Of a DNA stretch of 64,000 nt, positions 29,590-46,005 are shown in pieces (positions within the stretch are counted from its first letter, which is position 1; the number at the start of each line of letters is the position of its first letter). The position numbers and the translations under genes are program-made. Below the pieces are notes generated by a model. The model did no database searches and was not told the origin of the DNA. It saw only the letters and a program-made list of their open reading frames with translations. Where the stretch lies: IMG/VR virus record IMGVR_UViG_3300000553_000015; one strand, given 5' to 3'. The DNA is from a virus. Lineage: Duplodnaviria; Heunggongvirae; Uroviricota; Caudoviricetes.

Positions 29590-30870
29590 TCATACATTTT
29601 GTACATGCGGGACTATAAGCTCCGCACCAGATAAATCTAATACCATTCTAGAAGTCCAATAGAACCCCTTGATATTAAATTTGTTCTGCCAAAAACCAAC
29701 AGGGAGCCGATATAAGTCGGCTTCATGATTTAGGGCGCCATTTATATCGGCATCATGGCATACGCCACATTGATTGCATATAAACTCCTTTCCCTTCCTA
29801 TTTGATTTTTGGGTCCATCCACAATCACTACATCTTTGACTTCTATAACTAGCCGATTGCTCGATTACTGGGACACCCAGTTCTTCACATCGCTTCATTA
29901 TCTGTGCATTGATTTGTGTATAAGTCCAATGACTTAAATTTCTTCCCATATTAGAACCTTTTCTCATTTGAAATAACTTTTCTAATCTGAGTTCTTTTAT
30001 ATTTGATAAATCCAATTGATTTATGGACCAATTGATATAATTTGTTCGGTGTTCCTGTACTCGTTTAAAGCCATTACTGCCTTTCTTTTTATATGATAAC
30101 TTATTGATTATACTATGTAAATCATGACCATGCATATCAGCACTAGTTGTTTGTCCATCACTTAATGATAAGCAAGTAACATATCCTTGGTCTGCACCAA
30201 TGATTTTACTACCAGTTGATTTCTCTCGTGTAGTTTCCCATCTGGAATATAAAGTGTTAGTAGAAATCTGCCAACTAGTAATCATTTTATAACCTTTCTT
30301 GGCTAATTGATTTGAATGCCTTGTTGTTTTAATTGGTATATAAATATGTCCATACCTTTTACCAAGTGATGATAATTTCAGCCATCCATCAAAGATACCA
30401 GTGGTATCTGGGATATATTTACAGCAATTACTATCCAAATTTGCTACTAAATTATTGCTATTTCGTGTTGGTTTTGATAATGGATTACTATCAATTTTTG
30501 ATTGTAATTTTGAAATAGATTTATCACCAGCACGCATTTGTTTAGCGAGAACAAATAATTGTTTTCTTCGTTTTTCTGTTCTACTTTTGATAATTGCCAG
30601 AGCTTCCCCTGACGCTAATTTAATTGCCCTTGCTGAAAGATCGGTAATTAAATCGATATCAGTGGTAGAAATAAAACTTGGAACATCTAATTTATTATTT
30701 TTGATATCTAAAGTTCTATTATTGCCCCAAATGATTTTATTATTCCATAAATAATCAACAAACCACCACAATACCCGATCATATTCGGTAATGAATTCTT
30801 TTAATATCAGTTGTTTACCAATATTAGCAAATTTGATATTATGTTGACTTGATTTAATTATTGTTTTCAT
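29590..30870 (-). CDS. tnpB: IS200/IS605-family TnpB (OrfB) RNA-guided nuclease homolog
   Basis: 426 aa; RuvC-I IGADQGY, C-terminal zinc finger CSDCGW…CNQCGVCHDADINGALN (RuvC-III); no tnpA nearby. Confidence 0.8.
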   Translation of the reverse strand: MKTIIKSSQHNIKFANIGKQLILKEFITEYDRVLWWFVDYLWNNKIIWGNNRTLDIKNNKLDVPSFISTTDIDLITDLSARAIKLASGEALAIIKSRTEKRRKQLFVLAKQMRAGDKSISKLQSKIDSNPLSKPTRNSNNLVANLDSNCCKYIPDTTGIFDGWLKLSSLGKRYGHIYIPIKTTRHSNQLAKKGYKMITSWQISTNTLYSRWETTREKSTGSKIIGADQGYVTCLSLSDGQTTSADMHGHDLHSIINKLSYKKKGSNGFKRVQEHRTNYINWSINQLDLSNIKELRLEKLFQMRKGSNMGRNLSHWTYTQINAQIMKRCEELGVPVIEQSASYRSQRCSDCGWTQKSNRKGKEFICNQCGVCHDADINGALNHEADLYRLPVGFWQNKFNIKGFYWTSRMVLDLSGAELIVPHVQNV

Positions 30871-31642: not shown

Positions 31643-34326
31643 TATTTAGCCCCACCAGATATATTCATATAAACCCCAGACAGAGCACTAGAGGTACAAA
31701 TGAATTCAATTAATGCAAATGTAGTAGTACCTGGACCATAATTTGAAGTGAATGTAAGTGTTCCATTACTACTATTTGACGCAGATAATCCACTAATAGT
31801 AATTACTGGATTTCCTTTTAATGATGTAACTAATACACGAATATTTCTACCTGCTAGCGGATTAGAAATAGTAATAGTAAATGCAGCACCAGCGTTATCT
31901 AAAATAACAACACCATTTGCTGTTCCTAAGTCTAACGCATAAGCATTAGATACTATAGATACTGGTCCAGTTATTGTGTAATATTTATTTAATGTAAGAG
32001 ATGAACTACCATTATATGTTGTTCCTGAAGATAATTGTAATCCAAATCCTGTTGTTAAAGAATTTAAGTTATTACCTAAAGCAACTCCAGAAATTGTGCT
32101 ATGTGATAGCATAGAATTAGATACTGTGCCAGTATCGCCTGTACCTATTAATGTACCGGTAGTTGATGGTAAAGTAAATGTTGTTGTTGCAGCGATTGCT
32201 TGAGATTGTAATAATGAAGTTCCGCTAGTTGCACCAGCAAATGTTATACTAGACATACCACTTAATGTTGTACTTGAACTACCTAAACTAATCGCAGTAG
32301 TACCTATAGTTGTACTATTATGTGCTAACGCTGAGTTAGGTATTGCAGTAAATCCAGAACCTATACTACCACTAGTTAATGCTCCAACACTTGTTAAACT
32401 ACTATTTACTATGGTTGAATTTAAGGTAGTTCCTGTTAAGGTTCCTGCTGCAGCTGTTAATGTGTATGAAGACAACGATCCATCAAAACTAACTCCATTT
32501 ATGTTAGTTGTTGTTGCCAGTTTAGTCGCAGTTCCAGCGTTGCCACTAACACTACCAGATATGGTATTAGAAACAGATAAATTACCAGATATTGTAGTAG
32601 TGCCACTAGAATTTCCAATGTTCAATGTGGTAGCTGCACCAGCAAAATTAACAGTTGTTGCAGTTGTATTAACTATATAGCATGTTGCATTTGATATAGT
32701 TAATGTATTTCCAGATAATGTTAAATTTCCATTTGAATTTATTGCTAGTAATGCTGCTCTAGTTGTATTTGCACTTTTATAAAATGTAATTCCATCATTG
32801 TCTCCTACACTAATACGACCTATGCTATTTGCATAATCGATGATTACGCCATCGGTGAATGAGCCAGCAAATGTTCCTAGTGAAACTACTCCAGTAGATG
32901 ATGAGACATTTGATGCAGATAATGCAGAAAAAGCACCAGTGCCAGGAGTTGATGTTCCGATGTTAATATTATCAATTGCACCAACCAATCCAGAATTAAG
33001 AACAATAGTATCCAATCCAGTTATAATTCCCCCAGCAACAAATGTTGCGGTAGTGGCATTACTATAGCTTACTGATGTCGTTGTACATGCAGTAACTGTC
33101 ACCGAATTCGCATTGTATCCTGCTGGATTCATACTAGAAACAGTAATTTTTCCACCTACCAAGAATGGTGGGAATGGTTGTGTTGAAAAAGTTAATGTAG
33201 CAGTTCCTGCTGTTCCACTTGCACCAGATACGTTAATAACCAGAGGAACTGCATTTAAATGCCCATTGATAACGGTATAATTTACAACATTTAATTTAGA
33301 TGATACAATACCGCTGGTAGTATCCATTCTAGCAACTAATTTAGTATTATTTGTACTTGCAATTTGACCATTTGGTGTAGCATAGAATGTTAAATATCCA
33401 CCTTGATTAGTATTAGTTAAATTTTCACCAGCATTAATTTCCATTCTAGCTGGCCCAAATCCTGGCCAACCACCACTAGCATAGCCAACCCCAGCATATC
33501 TTACAAGTGGTTCATTTGCTAATACAGGCAATGGTGACACCGCTGTTCCATTATATCTTCTTCCAGCATATAATGCATATGAACCTTGGGCATCGTTATA
33601 TAAACGACTCGGTGTAGCTATTCCTCCTTGGGGTGGTATACCTGTTATATGTAGCATTACACCTGTATTAACTGGAATTTGATAGACACCATCTAATGAA
33701 CCAACTATTTCTAATGCACCAGTATTTTGGTCTGCAGATGGAACTAACATTTGTATTTGTCCATCTCCACTAATATGAAAAATCGGACTTACCGCTTCAG
33801 CACCTGCTACCGTATCGTCTGTTTTATAAACTGAAAAATTACCAACTATGTTAACAGTTCCAGTACCATTTGATACGATGTTCACATCTTCATTTAAATT
33901 AACAGTTGAAAAATTATTTCCTGATGCATAAAAATCACCAAAACTAAAACTTAGACCAGCGCTATCAATAAGTAACGTGCCATCGGATGCAATTTCGATA
34001 CCAGGACCTGCTTTAATGCCACCCAATTGTGAAGAAGTGGCAGGTTTAAGCTGAAATACATTGTTTATATCTAATTCAAACATTGATCCAACATTCAAAC
34101 TAAGTGTTGCATCGGCTGAAACAGTAAATCCACCACCTGGTTTTACACTTCCTGCTATTTGCTCGGACGCAAATCCAACAATAACTGTATTTCCACCTGG
34201 TGTAATGCCATCACTTAAGCGTAGTTCACCAGTATCTTCATTCCAAAATATAGTTCCACGTTCACCAATATATTCATTTGCTGAAATAGTTGGAATACGT
34301 CCTGCTCTAATTTTTCTTATTGACAT
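31642..34326 (-). CDS. tail fibre-like structural protein (894 aa)
   Basis: G/T/S/N-rich beta-rich repeats; motifs shared with the 1751-aa fibre (…TGDTGTVSNSMLSHSTISGVALGNNLNSLT…). Confidence 0.6.
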   Translation of the reverse strand: MSIRKIRAGRIPTISANEYIGERGTIFWNEDTGELRLSDGITPGGNTVIVGFASEQIAGSVKPGGGFTVSADATLSLNVGSMFELDINNVFQLKPATSSQLGGIKAGPGIEIASDGTLLIDSAGLSFSFGDFYASGNNFSTVNLNEDVNIVSNGTGTVNIVGNFSVYKTDDTVAGAEAVSPIFHISGDGQIQMLVPSADQNTGALEIVGSLDGVYQIPVNTGVMLHITGIPPQGGIATPSRLYNDAQGSYALYAGRRYNGTAVSPLPVLANEPLVRYAGVGYASGGWPGFGPARMEINAGENLTNTNQGGYLTFYATPNGQIASTNNTKLVARMDTTSGIVSSKLNVVNYTVINGHLNAVPLVINVSGASGTAGTATLTFSTQPFPPFLVGGKITVSSMNPAGYNANSVTVTACTTTSVSYSNATTATFVAGGIITGLDTIVLNSGLVGAIDNINIGTSTPGTGAFSALSASNVSSSTGVVSLGTFAGSFTDGVIIDYANSIGRISVGDNDGITFYKSANTTRAALLAINSNGNLTLSGNTLTISNATCYIVNTTATTVNFAGAATTLNIGNSSGTTTISGNLSVSNTISGSVSGNAGTATKLATTTNINGVSFDGSLSSYTLTAAAGTLTGTTLNSTIVNSSLTSVGALTSGSIGSGFTAIPNSALAHNSTTIGTTAISLGSSSTTLSGMSSITFAGATSGTSLLQSQAIAATTTFTLPSTTGTLIGTGDTGTVSNSMLSHSTISGVALGNNLNSLTTGFGLQLSSGTTYNGSSSLTLNKYYTITGPVSIVSNAYALDLGTANGVVILDNAGAAFTITISNPLAGRNIRVLVTSLKGNPVITISGLSASNSSNGTLTFTSNYGPGTTTFALIEFICTSSALSGVYMNISGGAK

Positions 34327-34330
34327 TATG

Positions 34331-34651
34331 TTATCCTACAATATCATTATCTTCACTTGCAAATTGAATTGCAATAGGTTTAACACCTGAAAGTTTTTTA
34401 ATATCATTTAATTCATCATCTTGATTAAATGCGTTATCCATTCCAGCAGATTTTTTAAGAATTTCAAGCTTTGTTTGTAATGGTGGGATAAAATTACCAA
34501 TATTGGCATCTTTATCACCACTTTCCGCACCGTCATCGACATCATGTTGAAAATCATCTGCTGATTTTTCTGTATTTTCCGGTGCTTCTAAACCACCATC
34601 TTTTTGATCTAGCATATCTGCTATGCTATGTAAAATATCACTCATTTTCAT
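34331..34651 (-). CDS. hypothetical acidic protein (106 aa)
   Basis: ORF. Confidence 0.4.
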   Translation of the reverse strand: MKMSDILHSIADMLDQKDGGLEAPENTEKSADDFQHDVDDGAESGDKDANIGNFIPPLQTKLEILKKSAGMDNAFNQDDELNDIKKLSGVKPIAIQFASEDNDIVG

Positions 34652-34661
34652 TTTTTAATTC

Positions 34662-34919
34662 CTATATCCAGGGACGGCCTTGAACTAACCCACCAACATT
34701 TGGGTTGTCTACTACATTGTTGCCACTATACTTTGTTGGTAAATTGTTTATTGCCAATGTATGTAATGGTCTGTAATAGTTTTTAGTATTGTCTAAACTA
34801 CCTGTAATAGTTCCATCAACTGCTACAGTTTTGCCTTGACGCTTTGCTTCAGCAATTGCAAGTTTTTGTTCTTGCTTAGCTTGTTTGGTAGATAATGTTG
34901 AAATTCCGTTGGCTGCCAT
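34662..34919 (-). CDS. hypothetical protein (85 aa)
   Basis: ORF. Confidence 0.4.
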   Translation of the reverse strand: MAANGISTLSTKQAKQEQKLAIAEAKRQGKTVAVDGTITGSLDNTKNYYRPLHTLAINNLPTKYSGNNVVDNPNVGGLVQGRPWI

Positions 34920-34951
34920 AAATTTTTCCTCTATTATCTATTTAGGTAAAT

Positions 34952-36160
34952 ATGGAAATGATTAATAAAACTCCTTTCAACAATTTAATACAAAATTTAA
35001 AAGATAATGGAAAGTATCGTGTTTTCAATGACATACTGCGAGAACAAGGTAAATTTCCTAATGCAATATGGTATGGCCCATATGCTATTAAGAACATTGT
35101 CAATTGGTGTTCAAATGATTATTTGGGCATGGGTCAGTCTAAAGTAGTATTAGATGCAATGAGAACAGCATTAGATATGACTGGTGCTGGGTCTGGTGGT
35201 ACTAGAAATATATCTGGTACTAGCCATTACCACGTTGCACTTGAACATGAATTGGCATCATTACATAAGAAAGAAAAAGCATTGTTATTTACTTCAGCAT
35301 ATGTGGCAAATGAGTCATCATTGATTTCATTATCTAAGATCATTAACAATATTGAATTTATTAGTGATAGCAAAAATCATAATAGTCTAATTGTTGGTAT
35401 GAGTTATAGTAGAGCACCAAAACAAATATTCAGACATAATGATTTAGAAGATTTAGAAAGTTGTTTAAAGAAAGCAGTTGAAAATGGGAATACTCCTTGT
35501 ATAGTGTTTGAAAGTGTATACAGTATGGATGGTGATATTAGCCATATTAAAGAAATTTGTGATTTAGCTGATATGTATAATGCCATAACATATCTTGATG
35601 AAGTCCACTCCATAGGCGTAATAGGTCCAACTGGTGCTGGATTATTAGAAGAACTTGGATTACAAGATCGAGTTGATATTGTTAATGGAACATTAGGTAA
35701 GGCATATGGAGTTCAGGGTGGATATATTGCTGCTGATGCCATCGTAGTAGATGCAATCAGAAGTATTGCGGCTGGGTTTATATTCTCAACATCACTAAGT
35801 CCAGTAATATGTGCTGGTGCATTGGCTGCTGTGAAATATTTAAAAGATCATAATGAAATAAGAGAGAAAATTAAAGAACGTGCGAATAAATTAAGATTTC
35901 TTATGAGAGAATACAATATACCAGTGATGGATGGAAAAACCCACATTGTTCCAGTAATAATTGGTGATGCAAAGAAAGCCAAAGAGATAAGTGATATTTT
36001 GTTAAATGATTATAACATTTACGTTCAAGCCATAAATTTTCCTACAGTTGAAGTTGGTACTGAACGATTGAGGTTCGCCCCTACTCCGAACCACACCGAT
36101 GGTATGATTTCCGATCTTGTTGAAACGTTGACTATCGTAATGAAAAGGTATTCGAGATAA
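34952..36160 (+). CDS. hemA: 5-aminolevulinate synthase (alpha-oxoamine synthase family, PLP-dependent)
   Basis: YRVFNDILR…VNWCSNDYLGMGQS, TGAGSGGTRNISGT, FESVYSMDGD, YLDEVHSIG, NGTLGKAYGV (PLP-Lys), GGYIAA, GFIFSTSLSPV, YVQAINFPTVEVGTERLRFAPTP: near-complete set of ALAS signature blocks. Confidence 0.85.
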   Translation: MEMINKTPFNNLIQNLKDNGKYRVFNDILREQGKFPNAIWYGPYAIKNIVNWCSNDYLGMGQSKVVLDAMRTALDMTGAGSGGTRNISGTSHYHVALEHELASLHKKEKALLFTSAYVANESSLISLSKIINNIEFISDSKNHNSLIVGMSYSRAPKQIFRHNDLEDLESCLKKAVENGNTPCIVFESVYSMDGDISHIKEICDLADMYNAITYLDEVHSIGVIGPTGAGLLEELGLQDRVDIVNGTLGKAYGVQGGYIAADAIVVDAIRSIAAGFIFSTSLSPVICAGALAAVKYLKDHNEIREKIKERANKLRFLMREYNIPVMDGKTHIVPVIIGDAKKAKEISDILLNDYNIYVQAINFPTVEVGTERLRFAPTPNHTDGMISDLVETLTIVMKRYSR

Positions 36161-36199
36161 ATAAAGATGTAGTTCACGGAATTGACGTTCCCAACTACT
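36158..36199 (+). promoter_or_regulatory. conserved homing-endonuclease leader: ATAAATAA late-type box plus two-tier stem-loop GTAGTT…GGAA-N6-TTCC…AACTAC
   Basis: Shared with leaders at 38291, 54692 and 50505; box overlaps ALAS stop codon. Confidence 0.5.
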
Positions 36200-36223
36200 C
36201 TAACGTCTATGGAGGACATCAGC

Positions 36224-36499
36224 ATGTGTATTTATACAGAAATACCACCAACATATCTTTATATTAAAAAACATTCAATAACAGGTCTTAAATATTTTGG
36301 TAAAACTACAGAATCTGATCCTTATAAGTATCTAGGGTCCGGCACATATTGGAAGAAACACTATAAAAAACATGGCAAAGAATTTATAGAAACTATATGG
36401 GTATCTGATCCGTTCACTGATAAAGAATTACTGATTGAAGACTTAATAAATGCGTTAACTGCAGTATTAAGCCATAGCTTTAGCGGCGATTGTAACTAA
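36224..36499 (+). CDS. truncated GIY-YIG homing endonuclease (nuclease domain only, 91 aa)
   Basis: MCIYTEIPPTYLYIKKHSITGLKYFGKTT…YWKKHYKKHG; lacks DNA-binding repeats; start set by conserved GGAG-N8-ATG as in paralogs (track's TTG start at 36182 rejected). Confidence 0.5.
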   Translation: MCIYTEIPPTYLYIKKHSITGLKYFGKTTESDPYKYLGSGTYWKKHYKKHGKEFIETIWVSDPFTDKELLIEDLINALTAVLSHSFSGDCN

Positions 36500-36739
36500 T
36501 TCTACCAATGCTGCTCTAAGTTGAGCATTATTAGCTGATTCTTCTAGTTTTTCTGTGCTAATTAGATCTGCTAAAATTTCTTTTCCTTCTTCAGCACTCA
36601 ATTGACCAGATGCAACTGCTTCTGAAACTTGGACGGCATAATTAGCTCTATCGATGGCCCATTGTTGACCACTATTAATTATATCACTTAATAAACTCAT
36701 TTTATTCTCCTTAAAATCTTTTTTGCACTGCGCGGGCAA
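36467..36739 (-). CDS. hypothetical protein (90 aa)
   Basis: ORF. Confidence 0.4.
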   Translation of the reverse strand: MPAQCKKDFKENKMSLLSDIINSGQQWAIDRANYAVQVSEAVASGQLSAEEGKEILADLISTEKLEESANNAQLRAALVELVTIAAKAMA

Positions 36740-37079
36740 TGATGTCGCTTTGTTGCTCTATAATTTTCTTTTTTAAAGAGCAATACATAGGACTAACCTT
36801 ACCACGGTCACTACGTTCTTTAAATTCTGCAACTGTCTTGTGTAGTTCTTCAAATAATGCTACTATATCATTTGAACCACGTGATACTGAATAGGTATTA
36901 AACCATTCAACTTGTTTATTTAAGTCATTGATTTGGCTTTTTACATTAGCACAATCAAAATACTTTGCTGACATTTCAATATCAATTATAGCTTTTGCTT
37001 CATTTCCATCCCATTTGCTTGGAATATACGCACAACCTACTAATGATATCACTGCTACTAACACTAACATTCTTTTCAT
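36711..37079 (-). CDS. lipoprotein (122 aa)
   Basis: Signal peptide plus lipobox MKRMLVLVAVISLVGC. Confidence 0.55.
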   Translation of the reverse strand: MKRMLVLVAVISLVGCAYIPSKWDGNEAKAIIDIEMSAKYFDCANVKSQINDLNKQVEWFNTYSVSRGSNDIVALFEELHKTVAEFKERSDRGKVSPMYCSLKKKIIEQQSDIIARAVQKRF

Positions 37080-37114
37080 TTTAATTCTCCTGGAATATCT
37101 AATATTTATCAGAG

Positions 37115-37828
37115 TTACTGACCCAACTCAAATTTCATTTGAGTTGCTTCTTCAACTGCAGCCATTGGTACTTCGTATTTTGGTAAATCTGCTACTGGTA
37201 ATGGCGCATTTGGCATTAAATATGCTTTAACTGTTCTACTATTCTTTTCAACTATGATCTTATATAATCGAGTTGGAATTCCTAATCCATTCCCAGTTAC
37301 AAAATGTCCTGGGTCATAAATTCCACCTGATATAATATAAAAATCAGTACCTGGTGTCATAGCCCATTGCCGTTCAATAGTTTCAAGTGATTTCCAAATT
37401 CCTCTATTATTATTGGCAACTTGTGGAACCATATTAGACAAATTAAAACTTTCACTCATAACAGCATCATTTTGTGTATTATTCTTAGCTGGGGACATAT
37501 GTCCTCGATCATACTTGTTACCAACAGTAGCATAATCAGCTAATGTTGCAGAACATTGTGGCGCAACAGATGGATCTGGATGGAAGTTGTCTTTCCTTTT
37601 AGCTGGACCTGTCATATCATCCATAGATAGATGTTCGAACACTGCTACTGGTGCTTTGACATCACATCTATGAATCACTGCATAGTTCAAATGACAAATT
37701 TCTTGGTCACCTGGATGTGGTTGATATAATGGTGTTCCATTTACAGTTAGTTGTGGACATTGGTCATTGATTACCCCAGCGTGTACTGGTGCAACTACCA
37801 TTAGTAATAGTAATAAAATATATTTCAT
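37115..37828 (-). CDS. secreted DNA/RNA non-specific endonuclease (Serratia NucA/Endonuclease_NS family)
   Basis: Signal peptide MKYILLLLLMVVAPVHA; catalytic DRGHMSP motif; ATAAATAT box upstream. Confidence 0.7.
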   Translation of the reverse strand: MKYILLLLLMVVAPVHAGVINDQCPQLTVNGTPLYQPHPGDQEICHLNYAVIHRCDVKAPVAVFEHLSMDDMTGPAKRKDNFHPDPSVAPQCSATLADYATVGNKYDRGHMSPAKNNTQNDAVMSESFNLSNMVPQVANNNRGIWKSLETIERQWAMTPGTDFYIISGGIYDPGHFVTGNGLGIPTRLYKIIVEKNSRTVKAYLMPNAPLPVADLPKYEVPMAAVEEATQMKFELGQ

Positions 37829-37863
37829 AAAAATCCTTTGAGGTTATTGAATATTTATGTTAT

Positions 37864-38274
37864 TTAAACAAACCACCCTATCTTTTTGTGTAATTCTATT
37901 CTATTATCATATTCTTTTATACTTCCTGGATATCGCCATCCCCATATCACGACTAGAAACATTGTAATGCCAGCATATAACACTGCTTTTTCATTATGTG
38001 TAGTAAACCACATTATTATTAGACTACTAGCCATCATTCCTACCATGAGGTATTTTGCTTTGATTGGAAATACCTTATAATGTGTCCAATTAGTAATAAA
38101 TGGACCAAATAATTTATGATTATAAATCCAATTATGCATATTAGGACTGCTTTTAGAAAAGCAATATGCAGCACCCACGATAAAAATGCTAAAGGGGACC
38201 CCTGGGGTGATTACTCCGATATATGCCAATCCTAGTAAGATAAATCCTGCTATTTTCCAAAGTATATTTTTCAT
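37864..38274 (-). CDS. YbaN/DUF454-family inner membrane protein
   Basis: ITPGVPFSIFIVGAAYCFSKSSPNMHNWIYNHKLFGPFITNW… DUF454 pattern, 3-4 TM. Confidence 0.55.
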   Translation of the reverse strand: MKNILWKIAGFILLGLAYIGVITPGVPFSIFIVGAAYCFSKSSPNMHNWIYNHKLFGPFITNWTHYKVFPIKAKYLMVGMMASSLIIMWFTTHNEKAVLYAGITMFLVVIWGWRYPGSIKEYDNRIELHKKIGWFV

Positions 38275-38290
38275 AATTTTAATAATTTTA

Positions 38291-38332
38291 ATAAATAAAG
38301 ATGTAGTTCACGATGCGTCAACATCTAACTAC
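38291..38332 (+). promoter_or_regulatory. conserved homing-endonuclease leader (ATAAATAA box plus stem-loop GTAGTT…GATG-N6-CATC…AACTAC)
   Basis: Inner stem shows compensatory change relative to the other copies. Confidence 0.5.
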
Positions 38333-38357
38333 TTTAATACTTTGAAGGAGTATCAAC

Positions 38358-39152
38358 ATGAATATTTATACAAACAACGATCCTATTTTTAGATTTTATG
38401 TATACGCATATCTTCGTAAAAAAGATGGAACCCCTTACTATATTGGCAAGGGAACTGGTTATCGAGCTTTCTCAAATGACCATACTGTAAAAGTCCCAAC
38501 TGATAAAAAACGAATAGTTATTATTGAATCAAATTTAAGTAGTATTGGAGCATTTGCAATTGAACGTAGAGTAATTCGATGGTATGGTAGGAAAAATAAT
38601 GGAACTGGTATTTTAAGAAATCTAACTGATGGTGGTGAAGGTGCTCATGGATATAAACATACCGAAGAATATAAAATACATATGTCCAAAATATGTACAG
38701 GAAGAATAATGCCTAGAGAAGCAGTGGAAAAAACAAGACTTGCTAATACAGGCAGAAAAAATCTAAAATTATCATTAGCTATGAAAGGAAGACCATCAAA
38801 AAATAAAGGAAAATTTATGTCGGATATATATAAAGCTACTTGCTCTAATGCACAATCCAAACGGTTTTTAAATTCCGATGAAAGAAATAAATTGGCACTA
38901 CACGGTAAAATTGGAAACGAAAAAACTAGAGAACAATGTAAAAAATTAATTGTAAAAGATCCAAAAGGAAATATTAATGTTTTTATATCACTACCAGATT
39001 TTGCATCAAATATAGGTGCTAAAGCACGAAATATTTATTGTCTTATTAACAAGTATGATGGGGAAATTATACAAAAAGGAAAGTTTGCTGGATATACTTT
39101 CTGGCTTAGGACACCAGAAACTGTATCAGATACGTTAAAAAATATAATGTAA
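38358..39152 (+). CDS. GIY-YIG homing endonuclease with NUMOD3-like repeats
   Basis: [24 protein letters not shown] (GIY…YIG…R); [11 protein letters not shown] and GRPSKNKGK modules. Confidence 0.75.
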
Positions 39153-39647
39153 CCATTCCTTATGTTTAACTTCAAAACCAAATTTCTTACGTTTGTTTAC
39201 TAATTCAAAATAATCAGGTTTATAAGGAGTATTATATGGGCTCTTCCATGGATAGGAATTTCCCTTTTCCGAATTACATTTTGAACATGACAGTGCACAA
39301 TTATTCCAACTAGTTCTTCCACCTTTTGATGATGGGATAACGTGATCTATTGTAGCAGTTTTTAAATTAAGTGTAGTTCCGCAGTATTGACATATTCCAT
39401 CATCTCTTACCAGTAAACTTGCCCGACTAAATTTTACTGTAGTTTTTGGTTTTAAATATTCACGGAGCATTAGAACAGCTGGGACATTAGTTTTCCAATT
39501 TGCAGAGCGAATGGTCCAATTGTCGTGCCACAGCACAACATCGGCTTTTTCTAAAACCATATATTTTATTGAATCCTGCCATGATATAGTGCTGAGTGGC
39601 ATTATACTAACAGGCATTCCTGATGCATTTAGTAATAAACAATCCAT
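39135..39647 (-). CDS. HNH endonuclease
   Basis: CQYCG…[30 protein letters not shown]. Confidence 0.75.
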
Positions 39648-39658: not shown

Positions 39659-40228
39659 TTATATTTTACTTTTAAATTCAATTGATTTTGCAAAATCTTC
39701 TGCGGATTTTTCTAACGCATTTTGCCATTGTGTTTTTTGATCTTGGTCAAATACCAAATCAATGTCGCTTGAAGCTGTACACCAACTATTGGTATGATTA
39801 TACGGTGGAGTTCCCGATATTTCTGAGCGCAGTTGGTCATTGGCCCATCCACACATCCCAAACATCAATCTCCATTTATTTGGAAAGTCACCATTGGCAA
39901 GTCTTGGCAGAATCTTATCTGATGAACTTAATGAAAAGTTATCATTGATTCTTAATGTATTTTTACACTCCCATTCATTTGAATGTATCAATGAAAGACT
40001 ATTGGGACTAATTGGTCCACCATTATAAACAAATCCTGGTATATCAAAGTCTAGTCCTACTTTTTCACCCAACTCATTAATAGTTAGATTACTACGTTTA
40101 TTAAGGACTAGACCTATACTTCCATAATTATAATGTTCAACTATCATTATAACTGTTTTATACCAAAAGTTGCCTTTGACTGATGGTGGTGCTATTATTA
40201 AATTACCTACTATATTACCTAAATTCAT
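39659..40228 (-). CDS. hypothetical protein (189 aa)
   Basis: ORF. Confidence 0.4.
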   Translation of the reverse strand: MNLGNIVGNLIIAPPSVKGNFWYKTVIMIVEHYNYGSIGLVLNKRSNLTINELGEKVGLDFDIPGFVYNGGPISPNSLSLIHSNEWECKNTLRINDNFSLSSSDKILPRLANGDFPNKWRLMFGMCGWANDQLRSEISGTPPYNHTNSWCTASSDIDLVFDQDQKTQWQNALEKSAEDFAKSIEFKSKI

Positions 40229-41207: not shown

Positions 41208-42026
41208 TTATCCATTTCGTCTATCAATCCATTCATATATATTCAACCATTTACGTTTTCCAATAGTTGCTTTAAGATGTTTCAAATCTGCCTTTACATC
41301 ATATCTTTCTGTAGTACCAGCTTCTACAAATTCTATAACAGCATCTTCTTGTTCTGCTATTTCAGTAGCGATGTCAAAATACGAGTGTGATAACCCAGTC
41401 CCAACATTCCAGATTCCAGATCCATTGACTTGTTTAATAAAATCAATATGTAATCTACAAACATCACCAACCCATACCCAATCGCGTTTTATGTGTTCTG
41501 CATTATTCCATACTTTTATAGTTCCAGTTGACTTTGCTTCTTCTCTCCATTTATACATAATATCTGCACGACTTCCCTTGGTATACATATATTTTCCATA
41601 TACATTGAAGTACCTGAATCCTTGGACATAAACACTGTGTTCTTGTTGAAAAACCCATCTATCAAATAAGTATTTTGACCAAGCATATGGGGTATGTGGA
41701 TGACAAGGTGCAAATTCACTAAAATTCTTATTAGTTCCATATACATCATGTGTACTCGCATATTGCAAATGAACTTTATTTTTATTGCATTCTTGAAAAA
41801 GCCATTGACTAAACTCATAGTTTTTGTGTATAATGGTATCAACATCTTTATCACTAGTATCGGTAACCGCTCCTAAGTGGATAACCCATTTATATCGTCG
41901 TACATCAGGATAGTTATTTGGATCCCAGTTCCAGATTTCAACATCCCAGAATTCTTCTTGTGCTAACCATTCAAGCATATTTCGTCCAATGAACCCGTTG
42001 GCGCCGGTAACTAGTATTCTCATCAT
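41208..42026 (-). CDS. hldD: NAD-dependent sugar epimerase, ADP-L-glycero-D-manno-heptose 6-epimerase-like
   Basis: VTGANGFIGRN Rossmann, YAWSK catalytic YxxxK, GFRYFNVYG and RDWVWVGDV…NVGTG blocks as in HldD/RfaD. Confidence 0.55.
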   Translation of the reverse strand: MMRILVTGANGFIGRNMLEWLAQEEFWDVEIWNWDPNNYPDVRRYKWVIHLGAVTDTSDKDVDTIIHKNYEFSQWLFQECNKNKVHLQYASTHDVYGTNKNFSEFAPCHPHTPYAWSKYLFDRWVFQQEHSVYVQGFRYFNVYGKYMYTKGSRADIMYKWREEAKSTGTIKVWNNAEHIKRDWVWVGDVCRLHIDFIKQVNGSGIWNVGTGLSHSYFDIATEIAEQEDAVIEFVEAGTTERYDVKADLKHLKATIGKRKWLNIYEWIDRRNG

Positions 42027-42033
42027 TTATTTA

Positions 42034-42062
42034 TTGACATTCAACATCATTTGTAATATAAT
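42034..42062 (+). promoter_or_regulatory. sigma70-consensus promoter TTGACA-N17-TATAAT driving the small-gene array
   Basis: ttgaca 42034-39, tataat 42057-62, ATG 42090. Confidence 0.6.
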
Positions 42063-42089
42063 GGACATTTACTAAATTTAGATTAAATT

Positions 42090-42371
42090 ATGAAAATAAA
42101 AATACAAAAGATGGATGGTAGACACAATGGTAATTCATATTTTACCTATATGGCGTTAATGTATCATTATAATAAATCAGAAAATATGGCTAGAGTACGT
42201 GATATCCGCCAATGGTGTTGGGAACAGTTTGGACCAAGTTGTGAATACTATGAATATGAGGAAATAGCATGTATGGGTGAAGTAAATCCTAAATGGTGTT
42301 GGCTTGGATCTGAAAGAATTTTAATAAAGGATGAAGCAGACCGTAATTGGTTTGCATTGAGGTGGGGATGA
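42090..42371 (+). CDS. WFxLRW-family small protein, member 1 (93 aa)
   Basis: …IRQWCWEQFGP…DEADRNWFALRWG*; stop overlaps next ATG. Confidence 0.6.
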   Translation: MKIKIQKMDGRHNGNSYFTYMALMYHYNKSENMARVRDIRQWCWEQFGPSCEYYEYEEIACMGEVNPKWCWLGSERILIKDEADRNWFALRWG

Positions 42372-42568
42372 GAATACGTAAAATGCCATTTGAAAATAAT
42401 AGCTTTTTATTAAGTAATAACGAAAAAGGTCTAACAACAGTAGAATGGAATAATGTAGCAGAATGGCTTCGAGAACGTAAAATGAAATTTAATATGCAAG
42501 GTGGTGTTTTAACGTTATATCGTGATATTGATTCAACAATGTTTGCATTAAGATGGTGTTCAGAATGA
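42368..42568 (+). CDS. WFxLRW-family small protein, member 2 (66 aa)
   Basis: ATGA-coupled start after GAGGTGG; ends …STMFALRWCSE. Confidence 0.55.
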   Translation: MRIRKMPFENNSFLLSNNEKGLTTVEWNNVAEWLRERKMKFNMQGGVLTLYRDIDSTMFALRWCSE

Positions 42569-42604
42569 AAAATTTGTGTTCTGAAATCTTTTTTTAATCA
42601 TATT

Positions 42605-42838
42605 TTGGTTCCATCTGCATTTACAAAACCATATGAAAATGTTCGGGTTGTCCAAGATTTAAATGAAAAATGGTATACGATTAGATCTAATAGACCAGAG
42701 ATAAACGATTGGATTATTAACCAATCAGATGGATGGCGGTATACTGCAAACCGTAGATTTAAGGATTATTGGCAGGAAGAAAATTGCTATGATCTTAGAG
42801 AAGATGTGTACACTTGGTTTATATTAAGGTGGAAATAA
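42605..42838 (+). CDS. WFxLRW-family small protein, member 3 (start uncertain, no in-frame ATG; TTG/ATT)
   Basis: ends …DVYTWFILRWK*. Confidence 0.4.
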   Translation: MVPSAFTKPYENVRVVQDLNEKWYTIRSNRPEINDWIINQSDGWRYTANRRFKDYWQEENCYDLREDVYTWFILRWK

Positions 42839-43059
42839 TGGATCCAAAATTAGCCGAAGAACGTATAAAACGTGATAAGTTTTATCAAATAATTAGAACT
42901 ATTGCATCTACAGAATGTCATAAGAAATTTGCAGATTTGTCTGAATATATTGAAAAAACATATGGAATATCTATAACAATAGATGGGTATATTACTGCAA
43001 ACTACATAATTGTAAATGAACAAAAGTATATGTTATTTAGGATTAAGTTTGGAATATGA
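42838..43059 (+). CDS. WFxLRW-family small protein, member 4 (73 aa)
   Basis: TAATG overlap start; ends …KYMLFRIKFGI. Confidence 0.5.
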   Translation: MDPKLAEERIKRDKFYQIIRTIASTECHKKFADLSEYIEKTYGISITIDGYITANYIIVNEQKYMLFRIKFGI

Positions 43060-43232
43060 TATCAATACCAATTTGGAAATTTGAAGACCCAATGGAAGTA
43101 ATTTGGTATATCAATAATAATTGGGGTGGCTATGGCACTCGGTGGGATTTAAAAAATTTAGTGGATCTTAGACTGACAAATGATTCAGATTTAACATTTT
43201 TACTATTAAAATTTAACGTGAAAGAACTATGA
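43056..43232 (+). CDS. WFxLRW-family small protein, member 5 (58 aa, missed by ORF track)
   Basis: ATGA overlaps on both ends; ends …DLTFLLLKFNVKEL. Confidence 0.45.
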   Translation: MISIPIWKFEDPMEVIWYINNNWGGYGTRWDLKNLVDLRLTNDSDLTFLLLKFNVKEL

Positions 43233-43564
43233 TCAATAAAATAACAACAGGGCGATATCTAACATCTTATAATTTTAACTCATCCAATTTAGACCCATTA
43301 GCAGAATGTGGTCAAATGAGGTATAAAAATGGTAGAGTAGAATATAATTCTGGTACCGCGTGGTACGAATTACAAGGAGATGCTGCGGTAGATTTATCAT
43401 TTGAAGCAGTACAAATATTAGAATGGGCTAAACAAAAGATGATAGAAGAGATGAATGAAAAGGATATACTTGAAAAGTATCCAGCATTATTAAATGCCAA
43501 GAACAATTACAATATGGTTAAACAAATATGTCAAGCTGAAGAAAACCTTGACAATAACAAATAA
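43229..43564 (+). CDS. hypothetical protein (111 aa, not family)
   Basis: ORF in array. Confidence 0.45.
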   Translation: MINKITTGRYLTSYNFNSSNLDPLAECGQMRYKNGRVEYNSGTAWYELQGDAAVDLSFEAVQILEWAKQKMIEEMNEKDILEKYPALLNAKNNYNMVKQICQAEENLDNNK

Positions 43565-43576
43565 CTGTAGTATACT
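43548..43576 (+). promoter_or_regulatory. sigma70-type promoter TTGACA-N17-TATACT
   Basis: ttgaca 43548-53, tatact 43571-76, then GGAG SD and ATG 43601. Confidence 0.5.
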
Positions 43577-43600
43577 AATAATTTAAATTCGGAGATTTTT

Positions 43601-43957
43601 ATGGACATATTATTAGTCCTTGTATTTTTACAATTAAAACATTACCATGTGGATTTCATGAATCAATCGCAAGATGAAGTTCAGACAAAAGGCATATATG
43701 GTAATATGATTGGTGTAGGGCATAGTGTTAAACATGGTCTTTTAACTTATGCTATTTTCTTATTCATAGTTCCATTCAACCAAGCATTATTTATTGGTAT
43801 AATTGATATAATTTTACATTACCATATCGATTGGATTAAAATGAATTATGGTAATCGTGATATGAATGATAAACAATTTTGGTGTCATATCGGTCTTGAC
43901 CAGCTTTTTCATCATTTGTGTTATATTGGCTATCTTGCATTTTGTTTGGTGATATAA
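43601..43957 (+). CDS. hypothetical His-rich membrane protein (118 aa)
   Basis: 3 predicted TM; HxxxD/HH motifs. Confidence 0.45.
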   Translation: MDILLVLVFLQLKHYHVDFMNQSQDEVQTKGIYGNMIGVGHSVKHGLLTYAIFLFIVPFNQALFIGIIDIILHYHIDWIKMNYGNRDMNDKQFWCHIGLDQLFHHLCYIGYLAFCLVI

Positions 43958-44248
43958 ATGATAACTTTTAATTTTTTAATTTCAAATCCTTGGTCTAATA
44001 CTTGGAATTTGATTTGGGGGACAAATGGGTTACTTACAACCCATAAAGCATGGGAACTTAATCTATATCGCACAGATCAAATTATTAATATCGAGTTTTG
44101 TTTAAGTATTAACTGTGACCACGCAGGGTTGAATACTAAATTAGGGTTGTTTGGTTATACTCTGGAATATACAGTTTATGATACAAGACATTGGGACTAT
44201 GAAAATAATACATGGGAAGTATATGACAGAGAAGAAGAGAACCCCTAA
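43958..44248 (+). CDS. hypothetical protein (96 aa)
   Basis: ORF. Confidence 0.45.
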   Translation: MITFNFLISNPWSNTWNLIWGTNGLLTTHKAWELNLYRTDQIINIEFCLSINCDHAGLNTKLGLFGYTLEYTVYDTRHWDYENNTWEVYDREEENP

Positions 44249-44495
44249 AAAGGAACTAGTTCATTTTGATATAATCGGTCGTAAGATCAAAGTTGGTGAT
44301 TTTGTAGCTGTTAGTGTCTATAATAGATTAGAAGTAGCAAAAGTTATAAAACTCAATCCAAAGATGGTTAAGATACAAATCTTAAATGCGAATACCAATA
44401 CATGGTACAAAGGCGAACACAATAGATATCCAACTGATATGGCTATTTTGGATAATGAATATTTAACATTTTATTTGATAAAACACAGTGCTTAG
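44222..44495 (+). CDS. hypothetical protein (91 aa; start moved to ATG 44222)
   Basis: Track ORF 44151 overlaps previous gene by 98 nt; internal ATG gives 27-nt overlap. Confidence 0.4.
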
Positions 44496-44751
44496 AAAAC
44501 AAGTTAAAGATTTAATAGAATATGATAGTCCTGAATACACAGAACTTCAAGAATGGTTAATAAAACATTTTGGACCAATAGATGACCACAAATTTTGGTC
44601 TACCGACTATATAACTGGCAAAGGTTGGGCAATGATTAAACGGTATCACTGGAATGATTACGGTCGTGAGACAGAATGGTATGTAGAATTTGATGCTAGG
44701 AAATTAAAACGTGCCCAAATGACATGGTTTAGATTAAAATGGATGAAGTAA
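44488..44751 (+). CDS. WFxLRW-family small protein, member 6 (GTG start)
   Basis: …LQEWLIKHFGP…QMTWFRLKWMK*. Confidence 0.45.
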   Translation: MLRKQVKDLIEYDSPEYTELQEWLIKHFGPIDDHKFWSTDYITGKGWAMIKRYHWNDYGRETEWYVEFDARKLKRAQMTWFRLKWMK

Positions 44752-44951
44752 AAATAAGTATCAGTTATATGCCAGACACCGTAATATTGAATCTTCGTGA
44801 TCATTGTGATAGCATGTCTGGGAATGATGAAGAACTGTGGTTGGAAATTCGTAATGCTGAATTACAAAAATTTAATGCAATATATCAAGATCGTGTTCTC
44901 ACATTTGAAAGTACAGCGCATTATCAATGGTTCTTAATGAGGTGGCAATGA
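44739..44951 (+). CDS. WFxLRW-family small protein, member 7 (70 aa)
   Basis: ends …HYQWFLMRWQ*. Confidence 0.5.
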   Translation: MDEVKISISYMPDTVILNLRDHCDSMSGNDEELWLEIRNAELQKFNAIYQDRVLTFESTAHYQWFLMRWQ

Positions 44952-45262
44952 AACCAGTAATAATATCAGAGATGCAATGGCATAATTTATTAATAGAAAT
45001 GTATAAAGATTATCCAAAAAGTGTTCTAGCCATAAGAGAAAAAACTAAGAAAGTTTTGGGATTTACATCAAGGTCGCATCGTACATGGATAGAAAATCCA
45101 ATGTACGATGAATTCATGAAACAATATGCTAATAAAATTGTAGATGAAACTTATATGATTCAACCATCTAGAGGGTATTATTCCAATATGATACACTTAG
45201 ATTTTTATAGTGAGCCAAAGAGAACTTTTTTCTTATTAAAGTATAGTGAATTTTTGAGTTGA
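44948..45262 (+). CDS. WFxLRW-family small protein, member 8 (104 aa)
   Basis: ATGA-coupled; ends …TFFLLKYSEFLS (degenerate motif). Confidence 0.5.
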   Translation: MKPVIISEMQWHNLLIEMYKDYPKSVLAIREKTKKVLGFTSRSHRTWIENPMYDEFMKQYANKIVDETYMIQPSRGYYSNMIHLDFYSEPKRTFFLLKYSEFLS

Positions 45263-45287
45263 CATTTAACCAGTTTTATTATACAAT
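45259..45287 (+). promoter_or_regulatory. sigma70-type promoter TTGACA-N17-TACAAT
   Basis: ttgaca 45259-64, tacaat 45282-87; GGAGAG SD and ATG 45317. Confidence 0.5.
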
Positions 45288-45316
45288 ATTATTTTTAATT
45301 TTATGTGGAGAGTTAT

Positions 45317-45535: not shown

Positions 45536-45542
45536 GAGAATA

Positions 45543-46002: not shown

Positions 46003-46005
46003 TAC

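Follow-up and report, generated by a model that had tools for sequence, protein, structure and literature searches.

The stretch of viral DNA analysed here (64,000 nt; the window) carries an intact gene for a viral 5-aminolevulinate synthase (ALAS), valaS, which encodes 402 aa on the plus strand (34952..36160) and was assigned from the TIGR01821 model, the match to 2bwn, the catalytic residues, the dN/dS ratio and its place in a viral clade. Taken together, the data make it very probable that this is a phage ALAS lacking heme feedback, which occupies an old slot in its phage lineage and had its 3' end invaded by a homing endonuclease cassette that was afterwards partly deleted. Phage valaS genes are already known, having been published with functional proof in 2024, and the present gene is a further member; the sole new detail is the exchange of the final ~100 bases of valaS for those of an endonuclease cassette, which then decayed. 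Wegner et al. (2024, Nat Commun 15:8783; PMC11480375) described phage valaS with complementation and enzyme assays, showing that the CB_2 vAlaS rescues an E. coli ALA auxotroph and is active in lysate, while its K250A variant is null, and listed freshwater phage genomes of 318-374 kb with valaS; an earlier listing of phage ALAS, from large freshwater phages, was given by Chen et al. (2020). The impression given in the original prediction, that ALAS might not be a standard phage gene, is contradicted by the 2024 paper. At least one of the phages listed there, the 374-kb freshwater phage GROS21-1_SAMEA9560794_UViG_0060, has a vAlaS in the same clade as the present enzyme: the protein P0113, 76% identical to this ALAS, contains all three available fragments of the GROS21-1_SAMEA9560794 vAlaS (PMC11480375).

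In the 402-aa protein, the heme-feedback residues of the Rhodobacter capsulatus (Rc) enzyme are absent, the position of Rc His342 being occupied by Lys and no Cys being found in the last 15 residues (Rc Cys400). ALAS converts glycine and succinyl-CoA into ALA, CoA and CO2, and ALA formation commits the cell to tetrapyrrole synthesis and is normally under tight regulation. Since the His342/Cys400 site is missing, the flow of ALA should persist regardless of host regulation, and the viral ALAS would in this way keep ALA moving towards heme or other tetrapyrroles in the infected cell. The same loss has been noted in viral ALAS, and the auxiliary tetrapyrrole-supply role that had been suggested from the sequence is the accepted reading for the family (PMC11480375); the benefit to the phage is hypothetical, in the literature as well as here. 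A possible, if doubtful, variant is that the ALA is not mainly destined for heme and respiration and instead feeds a phage heme oxygenase and bilin reductase, yielding iron or a bilin chromophore, or corrinoids. In published jumbo relatives, hemO and pcyA/X are indeed located elsewhere in the genome, some also having cobS, cobL or bchE, and these two genes accompany valaS as a cassette, as a broken cassette or dispersed, with 'individual valaS' occurring too (PMC11480375). HemO homologues are also abundant on contigs of 325-379 kb, and none of the 120 listed has a longest contig of 334,027 bp. On the other hand, neither the 64-kb window nor the 10 kb around ALAS in any relative yielded a hemO or FDBR gene: heme oxygenase and FDBR were absent from the 20 scanned window ORFs (150-800 aa), and tblastn with seven probes from the 2024 paper gave no match in the window or in 162 loci. 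Moreover, the role of these genes is called 'enigmatic' by Wegner et al. (PMC11480375).

Downstream of valaS lies an open reading frame on the same strand (36182..36499), the most likely start of which is the ATG at 36224, because an ATG following GGAG is the position conserved in paralogous leaders; read from there, it would encode 91 aa. Its first 72 codons (36224..36439) are the 5' fragment of a Seg-like GIY-YIG/NUMOD3 homing endonuclease gene, and the 91-aa product is 100% identical over 77 aa to the full-length 268/273-aa protein of the related locus L083. Full-length versions at the same site have 268-282 aa in L083 and 254 aa in the related locus L084. The fragment breaks off at family residue 77, still within the catalytic domain. 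It has lost 7 of the 15 invariant positions (A79, S83, W94, N96, E100 and G102 among them), every NUMOD3 repeat and the zinc-ribbon-like CxxC...NC motif of the C-terminus, while the last 19 codons of the ORF represent a remnant of an older ALAS C-terminus, not endonuclease. The gene is thus a truncated GIY-YIG homing endonuclease, as the original prediction had it, but it is not nuclease-domain-only, as it stops within that domain. With the Pfam GIY-YIG models (PF01541/SegE_GIY-YIG), the fragment scored 15 bits (E = 0.031), below the cut-off of 22.6, and the full-length endonuclease matched NUMOD3 only and no GIY-YIG model. Among the 120 listed of 2,170 homologues, the Pfam domains were mostly NUMOD3, with PF24308 in three and the GIY-YIG model in none. 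Searching PDB sequences with the family profile yielded only spurious zinc-finger or low-complexity matches (E > 0.7), so that structure prediction was needed. The endonuclease has the GIY-YIG catalytic fold. A paralogue, P0296, is present on a contig of 334,027 bp.

The 91-codon frame is accordingly described here as a chimeric pseudogene, and this copy is presumably inactive. It is improbable that it encodes a functional small protein, such as a trans-acting inhibitor of related endonucleases or a retained regulator. The frame has stayed open, its leader, hairpin and ribosome-binding site are kept, and two independent assemblies of this phage (L001 and L002) have it in identical form, but besides the missing invariant positions, repeats and zinc-ribbon-like end, its tail consists of antisense overlap and ALAS-remnant sequence, and the databases showed no second protein built in this way. 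The open frame may simply mean that stop codons have not yet had time to arise since the deletion.

An identity profile in 60-nt bins delimits a recently transferred tract on the plus strand (36058..36439) that comprises the last ~103 nt of ALAS, the leader and the 72 endonuclease codons. This tract is ~99.5% identical to L083 and then breaks off abruptly, whereas the rest of ALAS is ~78% identical. The variant ALAS C-terminus was found in four of four endonuclease-bearing loci, which represent only three independent lineages, compared to 1 of 82 loci without the endonuclease. The C-terminal ~35 residues of this ALAS, being derived from the cassette, are of foreign origin. At the same position, L084 has 2.26 kb where the related locus L085 has ~100 bp, and the displaced ALAS 3' copy of L084 shares 89% identity with the allele of L085, which has no endonuclease, against only 70% with the allele of L084 itself. 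The locus thus shows the signature of homing mobility, a presence/absence polymorphism together with a co-converted flank, and the clustering of the boundaries in the last ~120 nt suggests that the endonuclease cuts in or near the ALAS 3' end.

Part of the original ALAS 3' end, displaced by the cassette, is retained on the plus strand as the in-frame tail of the truncated endonuclease ORF (36440..36499); this remnant encodes DLINALTAVL... and shares 33 nt with the convergent gene, at that gene's 3' end. In relatives without the endonuclease, ALAS ends in ...GMIEDL(V/I)xAL..., and L083 retains PLHTDGMIEDLITALSTILNI* after its endonuclease. The resident-type C-terminus reads ...HDDGMIEDLVQAL.... 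Comparison of the window with the L083 endonuclease and with the ALAS remnants of L083 and L084 places the microhomology TGATTGAA at the deletion junction (36432..36439, plus strand), where it is common to the endonuclease codons L-I-E and the old ALAS codons M-I-E. In the proposed history, a free-standing GIY-YIG/NUMOD3 cassette would have invaded the 3' end of valaS in one sub-lineage, bringing a replacement ALAS 3' end, the AT-rich box, the hairpin, the ribosome-binding site and the endonuclease gene, and pushing the resident ALAS 3' end downstream. In this phage, a later deletion between two copies of TGATTGAA would then have removed the DNA-binding region completely, along with the final quarter of the nuclease domain and the greater part of the displaced ALAS remnant, leaving the 91-codon chimera.

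The leader contains an AT-rich box, GATAAATAAAG (also ATAAATAA), which spans the ALAS stop codon (TAA, 36158-36160) on the plus strand (36156..36166). It is kept in five of six aligned endonuclease leaders and recurs at 38290-38300 with an identical spacing of 68 nt to the start codon, and is therefore regarded as a conserved element of these leaders with a putative promoter role. A late-promoter box had been proposed over the stop codon. The site reads GATAAATA, a 7/8 match to the T4-type late consensus TATAAATA, and this consensus is not enriched in the window, with 11 occurrences against 18.8 expected and at least as many in 99 of 100 shuffles; nor is the 11-mer box enriched, and the assignment was abandoned. 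Between box and start codon, a hairpin, GTAGTTCACGGAA...TTCCCAACTAC (36169..36198, plus strand), is predicted, with a GGAGG ribosome-binding site on its 3' side (~36210-36214, plus strand). The support for the hairpin is covariation: RNAalifold on six copies gave 12 pairs, seven of them with compensatory changes, and although the structure appears in both the MFE and the centroid predictions, its z-score (-0.33) is not significant. The motif was found in 15 of 162 loci, and a regular-expression search for further copies gave none. Scans for sigma-70 promoters and terminators were at chance level overall; one sigma-70-like element, TTGGCT-17-TATTAT, lies just upstream of ALAS (34909-34937) and carries no weight.

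The slot occupied by valaS is much more widespread than the cassette. Upstream, a divergent minus-strand gene of 85 aa (g85, 34662..34919), with no Pfam or PHROG match, adjoins ALAS in 53 loci. Downstream, a convergent minus-strand gene of 77 aa (g77, 36467..36700) is conserved at the locus and directly abuts the ALAS stop codon in relatives without the endonuclease, and the ORF list gives further minus-strand genes at 36711..37079 and 37115..37828. Plus-strand ALAS inside a minus-strand region, as originally noted, is thus borne out by the genes on both sides. More than 40 loci conserve the order g85(-)/ALAS(+)/g77(-)/g122(-)...DUF454/HNH/DUF179. Among the IMG/VR relatives, over 40 contigs have ALAS in this slot and on this opposite strand, and the endonuclease stands beside it only in L083 and L084, besides the phage analysed here. 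By this reading, valaS is old in this phage lineage.

This arrangement makes very unlikely a recent acquisition of the whole gene from an alphaproteobacterial host together with the GIY-YIG cassette, which would also explain its opposite strand. The proposal draws on the adjacency of ALAS and the endonuclease fragment on the plus strand within a minus-strand block, and the last ~100 nt of ALAS did travel with the cassette. For the gene as a whole, mobilisation with the endonuclease can be set aside: most contigs with ALAS in the same slot and strand have no endonuclease, and the body of ALAS and the cassette have different histories, as their 78% and 99.5% identity to L083 shows. A comparison of the locus across relatives, as had been suggested, accordingly finds the endonuclease present or absent at the same site and ALAS constant. 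Even the nearest cellular ALAS share no more than 48-56% identity with this one, and the bipartition between viral and cellular ALAS was recovered in 100 of 100 bootstraps of a neighbour-joining (NJ) tree, a distance method, with Pelagibacterales and eukaryotes absent from the sampling; the viral side includes the marine and GROS21 sequences of the 2024 paper. The same tree and identities give no pointer to a recent alphaproteobacterial donor or host, which had been hinted at from the C4 route, and the idea of deducing the host from ALAS was dropped, since the viral clade lies apart from every sampled cellular lineage.

Equally remote is a bacterial origin of the window, whether as MAG-like sequence or as a prophage-rich island, in which ALAS would be a housekeeping hemA/hemT gene. 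GTDB MAGs do hold ALAS homologues that are 67-69% identical, and the window includes glycan-modification genes, DUF454, DUF179 and an SPFH protein. However, the taxonomy of these MAGs is incompatible (Crocinitomicaceae, Neomarinimicrobiota, Flavobacteriales and Vibrio), yet the phage synteny is common to them. The window itself encodes RNR, virion, tail-fibre and tail lysozyme proteins and many homing endonucleases, both HNH and GIY-YIG, and no tRNA genes were found in it. IMG/VR holds 397 confirmed stretches and 80 related loci, and the published relatives are curated phage genomes. The gene is therefore phage-encoded, as was proposed from the start, and its gene content and synteny mark the window as part of a large, low-GC aquatic phage, an identical ALAS protein being present on a 334-kb contig.

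The identity of the enzyme is equally clear. Against the 402-aa ORF, the NCBIfam model TIGR01821 scored 560.3 bits (E = 2.3e-168, residues 7-399), far above its curated cut-off of 338.55, and every signature motif quoted in the original prediction is present in the ORF. The ORF is 53% identical to R. capsulatus ALAS over 388 aligned residues. The residues important in the Rc enzyme, reportedly those of Astner et al. (2005), were compared for conservation alone, and all the catalytic residues examined are kept: the PLP lysine is K250 (Rc K248), the PLP contacts H143, D216, H219 and T247 are identical to Rc H142, D214, H217 and T245, and the glycine- and succinyl-CoA-binding residues R23, N55, T84, N86 and R374 are identical to Rc R21, N54, T83, N85 and R374. 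The dN/dS of ALAS was 0.084-0.120 in comparisons with L083, L084 and L085 (for relatives below ~80% identity dS is saturated and the ratio not computable), which indicates strong purifying selection on this valaS. Since the proteins of relatives open with MINK, translation may instead begin at the second ATG (34958). Judged from its sequence, the ORF is a genuine, intact ALAS that would be expected to be active; the assayed CB_2 enzyme is ~70% identical to it, over two N-terminal alignment fragments alone (99 aligned residues). It is extremely improbable that the ORF encodes a different alpha-oxoamine synthase (Kbl, BioF, serine palmitoyltransferase or a CqsA-like enzyme): the fold and PF00155 are common to all of these enzymes and the Kbl and BioF models hit at E-values of 1e-98 to 1e-94, but all sister models fall below their own cut-offs (Kbl 328 against 460 bits, BioF 316 against 426, SPT 230 against 640) so that the ALAS equivalog alone passes, the best PDB matches are the ALAS structures 2bwn (E = 4e-126) and 7x98 (~E-125) with Kbl only at E-61, the glycine- and succinyl-CoA-binding residues are kept, and one member of the viral ALAS family has been assayed enzymatically (PMC11480375).

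Phage ALAS being an established, experimentally shown auxiliary metabolic gene, the window adds a lower-GC member to the family. The fixed, strand-inverted valaS locus, shared by dozens of jumbo-phage contigs in IMG/VR, helps to define a phage group, and its occurrence in contigs mis-binned to bacterial MAGs, including a 335-kb "Neomarinimicrobiota" contig, makes it useful for MAG clean-up. The window also offers a base-resolution case in which a cassette reshapes a metabolic gene at its end and subsequently decays by microhomology-mediated deletion, and it draws attention to a large endonuclease family (>2,000 homologues) with a catalytic domain that escapes the Pfam GIY-YIG model.

Compared to the vAlaS of Wegner et al., the present enzyme belongs to the same family, viral clade and size class of phage (334 kb here, 318-374 kb there), shares the PLP lysine number K250 with the CB_2 enzyme, and has likewise lost the heme-feedback residues His342 and Cys400, a loss that is common in the clade and not universal. 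It differs in that this exact sequence is absent from the supplements of that paper, that the GC content is ~32% as opposed to 38-42% in the freshwater genomes, that hemO/pcyA are not within the 64-kb window, and that its 3' end has been replaced by a homing endonuclease cassette, the word 'homing' occurring nowhere in that paper (PMC11480375). Among GenBank phages, megablast of 34000-38000 gave no match, and tblastn of ALAS returned Kbl/BioF only, at <=36% identity and mostly from contaminated records. With R. capsulatus ALAS (PDB 2BWN/2BWO/2BWP) and the alphaproteobacterial HemA/HemT enzymes it shares the active-site residues examined, whereas cellular ALAS carry the heme-regulatory His342 and Cys400, here Lys and none, and form a separate group in the tree.

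The endonuclease has its closest analogues in the free-standing GIY-YIG endonucleases of T4-like phages (SegA-G) and in I-TevI, for which intronless homing with co-conversion of flanks has been described (PMC2988022), SegB being a homing endonuclease of this kind (PMC2330249), and nucleases have been reported at recombination boundaries (PMC10448857). In contrast to Seg and I-TevI, the present family has an N-terminal domain so diverged that the Pfam GIY-YIG model misses it, its genes are preceded by a conserved leader of their own that contains a hairpin, and the copy in the window is truncated. A further parallel is provided by the fungal mitochondrial mORFs, which insert a foreign C-terminal segment into atp6 of Allomyces macrogynus and into atp6, atp9, cox2 and nad3 of Glomus (PMC3630166). 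Both systems combine a native gene body with a foreign C-terminus, an endonuclease ORF and a displaced native C-terminus, and in both the displaced copy is closer to the endonuclease-free allele than the functional copy is (89% versus 70% in L084). The present case, however, concerns a phage instead of a mitochondrion, a separate gene with its own leader instead of an in-frame fusion, and an element that is mostly deleted in the window. The cassette-type C-terminus ...HTD(G/A)MISDLVEAL... is otherwise found in a distant marine relative. We tentatively suggest, with somewhat less than even confidence, that the 3' end of valaS is the specific homing target of this endonuclease family, which would thereby carry a foreign ALAS C-terminus from one large aquatic phage to another, the hairpin leader acting as the cassette's own expression signal. 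If so, a selfish nuclease would be driving allele exchange in an auxiliary metabolic gene, making these genes the phage counterpart of the fungal mORF hybrids.

The window very probably carries a functional viral 5-aminolevulinate synthase (ALAS) of a large aquatic phage, with a decayed homing-endonuclease cassette at the 3' end of its gene. The ORF (402 aa, 34952..36160, plus strand), which is flanked by minus-strand genes, was matched over residues 7–399 by TIGR01821, the curated NCBIfam ALAS equivalog, with 560 bits against a cut-off of 338.55 bits. The models for Kbl, BioF, serine palmitoyltransferase and CqsA-like proteins reached 167–328 bits, all under their own cut-offs, and the original prediction of an ALAS rather than BioF or Kbl was thereby upheld; every ALAS motif quoted in it was also found in the translation. 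The top solved-structure matches were bacterial ALAS (2bwn, E = 4e-126, and 7x98), followed by the human and yeast enzymes, with a Kbl structure ranking below the ALAS structures (1e-61). Compared with Rhodobacter capsulatus ALAS (53% identity, 388 positions), the equivalents of R21, N54, T83, N85, I86, S137, H142, K156, S189, D214, H217, T245, K248 and R374 (R. capsulatus numbering) were all identical, the PLP lysine K248 corresponding to K250. The choice of important residues reportedly follows the list of Astner et al. 2005, while their conservation was computed here. Comparison with the three closest relatives, limited to the part of the gene that recent gene conversion left untouched, gave dN/dS values of 0.084–0.120, a sign of strong purifying selection. 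As the relatives begin with MINK, the start of the protein is open to a shift of two codons.

Phage-encoded ALAS as such is already known. Viral ALAS genes (valaS) occur in marine and freshwater phage sequences, alone or with hemO and pcyA/X (Wegner et al. 2024, Nat Commun 15:8783, PMC11480375), and ALAS was already among the large freshwater phage genes in Chen et al. 2020. The published family includes an active member, encoded by CB_2, a freshwater phage of 527 kb: this vAlaS rescues an E. coli ALA auxotroph, a K250A mutant fails to do so, and ALA is formed from glycine and succinyl-CoA in lysates of the rescued strain (PMC11480375). The viral enzymes cluster away from bacterial ones, and His342 and Cys400, which mediate heme feedback, are missing from many of them (PMC11480375); similarly, in the window ALAS position 342 is Lys and the C-terminal cysteine is absent. 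Supplementary Dataset 1 of the same study holds 318–374 kb Lake Grosse Fuchskuhle phage genomes, each with dispersed valaS, hemO and pcyA/X (PMC11480375). The exact window sequence was not found in these supplements, and identities to it were approximately 70% for CB_2 vAlaS (over two N-terminal fragments), 61–62% for the marine pelagimyophage-type vAlaS, and 76% for a database protein on contigs of up to 378 kb (P0113), which holds all three retrieved fragments of the GROS21-1_SAMEA9560794_UViG_0060 vAlaS.

In a neighbour-joining (distance) tree of 51 sequences, from which Pelagibacterales and eukaryotes were left out, all viral ALAS fell on one side of a split in 100/100 bootstrap replicates, the window being sister to L083, a related phage locus. 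Genuine alphaproteobacterial ALAS were just 48–56% identical to the window protein, which together with this split argues against a recent alphaproteobacterial source. The claim of an intact, phage-encoded ALAS is thus borne out by TIGR01821, the retained residues, the surrounding phage genes and the viral clade, and in view of the published family and the tree it is right but not new. What is new is limited to a valaS locus that is fixed in one jumbo-phage group, the recognition of mis-binned MAG contigs, and the history of the endonuclease cassette at base level. ALAS activity, loss of feedback, physiological benefit, the endonuclease target and the host are matters that we infer.

Using the window's neighbouring proteins as synteny probes, the gene order was g85 (34662..34919, −), ALAS (+), g77 (36467..36700, −), g122 (−), optionally an Endonuclease_NS-family gene (37115–37828, −), DUF454 (37864–38274, −), an HNH endonuclease gene (39135–39647, −) and DUF179 (39659–40228, −). 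The Endonuclease_NS-family protein, which has a hydrophobic N-terminus and is possibly secreted, is a conserved valaS neighbour, as are the DUF454 membrane protein and DUF179 across the phage group. The full order from g85 to DUF179 recurs in dozens of IMG/VR contigs, and a partial one in the 67–69% identical marine-type contigs (g85 in L003; DUF454, HNH and DUF179 variously). Across the syntenic loci compared, ALAS always lies on the strand opposite to its neighbours, and this arrangement is therefore an old, stable feature of the phage group, with no sign of recent insertion. The opposite-strand placement originally noted is real, but since it recurs in dozens of contigs it does not mark mobilisation.

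The best GTDB matches (67–69%) came from MAGs labelled Crocinitomicaceae, Alphaproteobacteria, Neomarinimicrobiota (a 335-kb contig), Flavobacteriales and Vibrio. In four of these contigs (L003 and L005–L007) the ALAS grouped with viral sequences in the tree, and phage synteny was present, with DUF454 beside ALAS in 4/4 and HNH in 3/4. Judged by this viral grouping, the four (L005 being the 335-kb contig) almost certainly represent jumbo-phage DNA placed in the wrong bins, and the isolate names point to a probably marine origin. The contig labelled Alphaproteobacteria (L004, 1.3 kb, 67% match) is too short for neighbours, and ALAS alone is visible.

The window (GC approximately 32%) codes for a class Ia ribonucleotide reductase, a tail lysozyme and a 1,751-aa virion/tail-fibre protein, as well as a TnpB-like protein, an HNH endonuclease and several GIY-YIG endonucleases; no tRNA genes were found in its 64 kb. 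Records of the identical ALAS protein include contigs of up to 334,027 bp, and 397 confirmed IMG/VR stretches code for relatives (the best 72–85% identical, some on 353–356 kb contigs). The GenBank phage collection yielded no ALAS. Heme oxygenase or bilin reductase domains were absent from 20 scanned window ORFs of 150–800 aa, and seven HemO and FDBR probes from PMC11480375 matched neither the window nor 162 related loci, each reaching up to 10 kb from ALAS in both directions. Judged within the 64-kb window, this is an "individual valaS".

Elsewhere, a minus-strand cluster at 314–7509 (two sulfotransferases, a Nol-type carbamoyltransferase, a GT9-like protein, an FkbM methyltransferase and a GT1 glycosyltransferase), with an NAD-dependent epimerase apart from it (41208–42026, −), suggests phage modification of host or virion polysaccharide. 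The TnpB-like ORF (426 aa, 29590–30870, −; Pfam Cas12f1-like_TNB, PHROG transposase) lies between structural-region genes. In an 8.6-kb block at 42000–50600 (+) the GC skew is strongly positive and all ORFs are shorter than 150 aa; the block is presumably a row of many small plus-strand genes, perhaps an early region.

Homologs of the small ORF following ALAS (from ATG 36224) adjoin ALAS in only two other phages, where the gene is full-length: in L083 it spans 282 codons if read from TTG and 268 if read from the conserved ATG, and in L084 it spans 254. Three NUMOD3 repeats (E = 5e-15) were recognised in the full-length protein, as was a CPxC...HFNNC motif at its C-terminus; its hit to PHROG 314 "homing endonuclease" has E = 1.7e-25, that of the window fragment 3.6e-5. 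The GIY-YIG label is right at the fold level; the fragment itself scored under the Pfam GIY-YIG cut-off (15 vs 22.6 bits), that model never appeared in the precomputed annotation among 120 listed of the 2,170 homologs in the family, and the family profile found no match among PDB sequences. The window copy equals the L083 endonuclease for 77 identical residues and then ends, without 7 of the 15 invariant family positions (A79, S83, W94, N96 and E100 among them) and without the whole DNA-binding part. The description "nuclease-domain-only" is therefore inaccurate, and these losses make activity of the fragment very unlikely.

The window is rich in homing-endonuclease genes, with NUMOD3-family paralogs at 20026–20892 (−, 288 aa) and 54756–55343 (+, 195 aa), a more distant paralog at 38358–39152 (+, 264 aa) and a SegE_GIY-YIG-type endonuclease at 50604–51569 (+, 321 aa); a further paralog (P0296, 148 aa) lies on a contig of 334,027 bp, equal in length to the one with the ALAS. 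A canonical I-TevI-like GIY-YIG/NUMOD3 endonuclease of 309–323 aa, which passes Pfam GIY-YIG, was seen in two related loci (L087, 11909–12880; L084, 12492–13421), 0.7–1.3 kb downstream of valaS and with the same leader hairpin. With this second endonuclease type nearby, the valaS neighbourhood is a hot spot of endonuclease insertion.

The sequence across the ALAS stop codon, GATAAATAAAG, had been read as a late-promoter box, which the counts do not support: TATAAATA is rarer than expected in the window (11 vs 18.8), and the 11-mer box is not enriched there. The box nonetheless belongs to a conserved leader that the free-standing GIY-YIG endonuclease genes have in common, in which a ATAAATAA-like box is joined by a hairpin and by a ribosome-binding site, GGAG, ahead of the ATG. 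This leader occurs at 36156–36223 before ATG 36224, at 38290–38357 before 38358 (with identical 68-nt spacing), at 54690–54755 before 54756, and three times in L084 (1535–1630(−), 11197–11250 and 12430–12494). A variant before the SegE-type gene (50540–50603, gene at 50604) lacks the ATAAATAA-like box and GGAG and shows compensatory changes in the outer stem. RNAalifold returned 12 pairs, 7 with compensatory changes (6 copies), while folding energy alone was unremarkable (z = −0.33). The core motif, TCGCGGAA-N-TTCCCA, was present in 15/162 related loci. The leader may be an expression signal of the cassette itself, with a promoter, a processing site and translational control as candidate roles.

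Mobilisation of ALAS together with the cassette holds for the last ~100 nt only; the locus is fixed, and the ALAS body is just about 75–85% identical to L083 per 60-nt bin. At 36058–36439 the identity rises to 357/360 and then ends abruptly; this tract begins some 103 nt before the end of ALAS, runs through the 63-nt leader and takes in 72 codons of the endonuclease from its start. L084 carries 2.26 kb (two endonuclease genes and one small ORF) at a site where its endonuclease-free relative L085 has only some 100 bp, and directly after the first endonuclease gene of L084 lies a second ALAS 3'-end copy, 89% identical to the functional 3' end of L085 and only 70% to L084's own. L083 likewise retains a remnant coding for PLHTDGMIEDLITALSTILNI* after its endonuclease. 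Moreover, ALAS ends ...HDDGMIEDL(V/I)xAL... in endonuclease-free relatives and ...NHTD(G/A)MI(S/A)DLV... in the three endonuclease-bearing phages; of the loci that carry the endonuclease, 4/4 (from three independent lineages) have the variant end, against 1/82 of those that lack it, the exception being a distant marine-type contig. The near-identical tract, the displaced copies and the linked variant end indicate that the cassette brings its own replacement ALAS 3' end and displaces the resident one downstream.

The chimeric window ORF reads ...KELLIE|DLINALTAVLSHSFSGDCN*, the portion past the bar being the old ALAS remnant. As the junction sequence TGATTGAA (36432–36439) occurs in both the endonuclease (L-I-E) and the remnant (M-I-E), a microhomology-mediated deletion must have taken out two-thirds of the endonuclease gene, from its 3' side, together with most of the ALAS remnant. 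This returned the remaining end to the convergent g77, where ALAS stops in endonuclease-free relatives. Such a history agrees with intronless homing and co-conversion by the T4 Seg endonucleases (PMC2988022, PMC2330249), and the same architecture, "mORF plus foreign C-terminal plus native C* remnant", has been described for fungal mitochondrial atp6, cox2 and other genes (PMC3630166).
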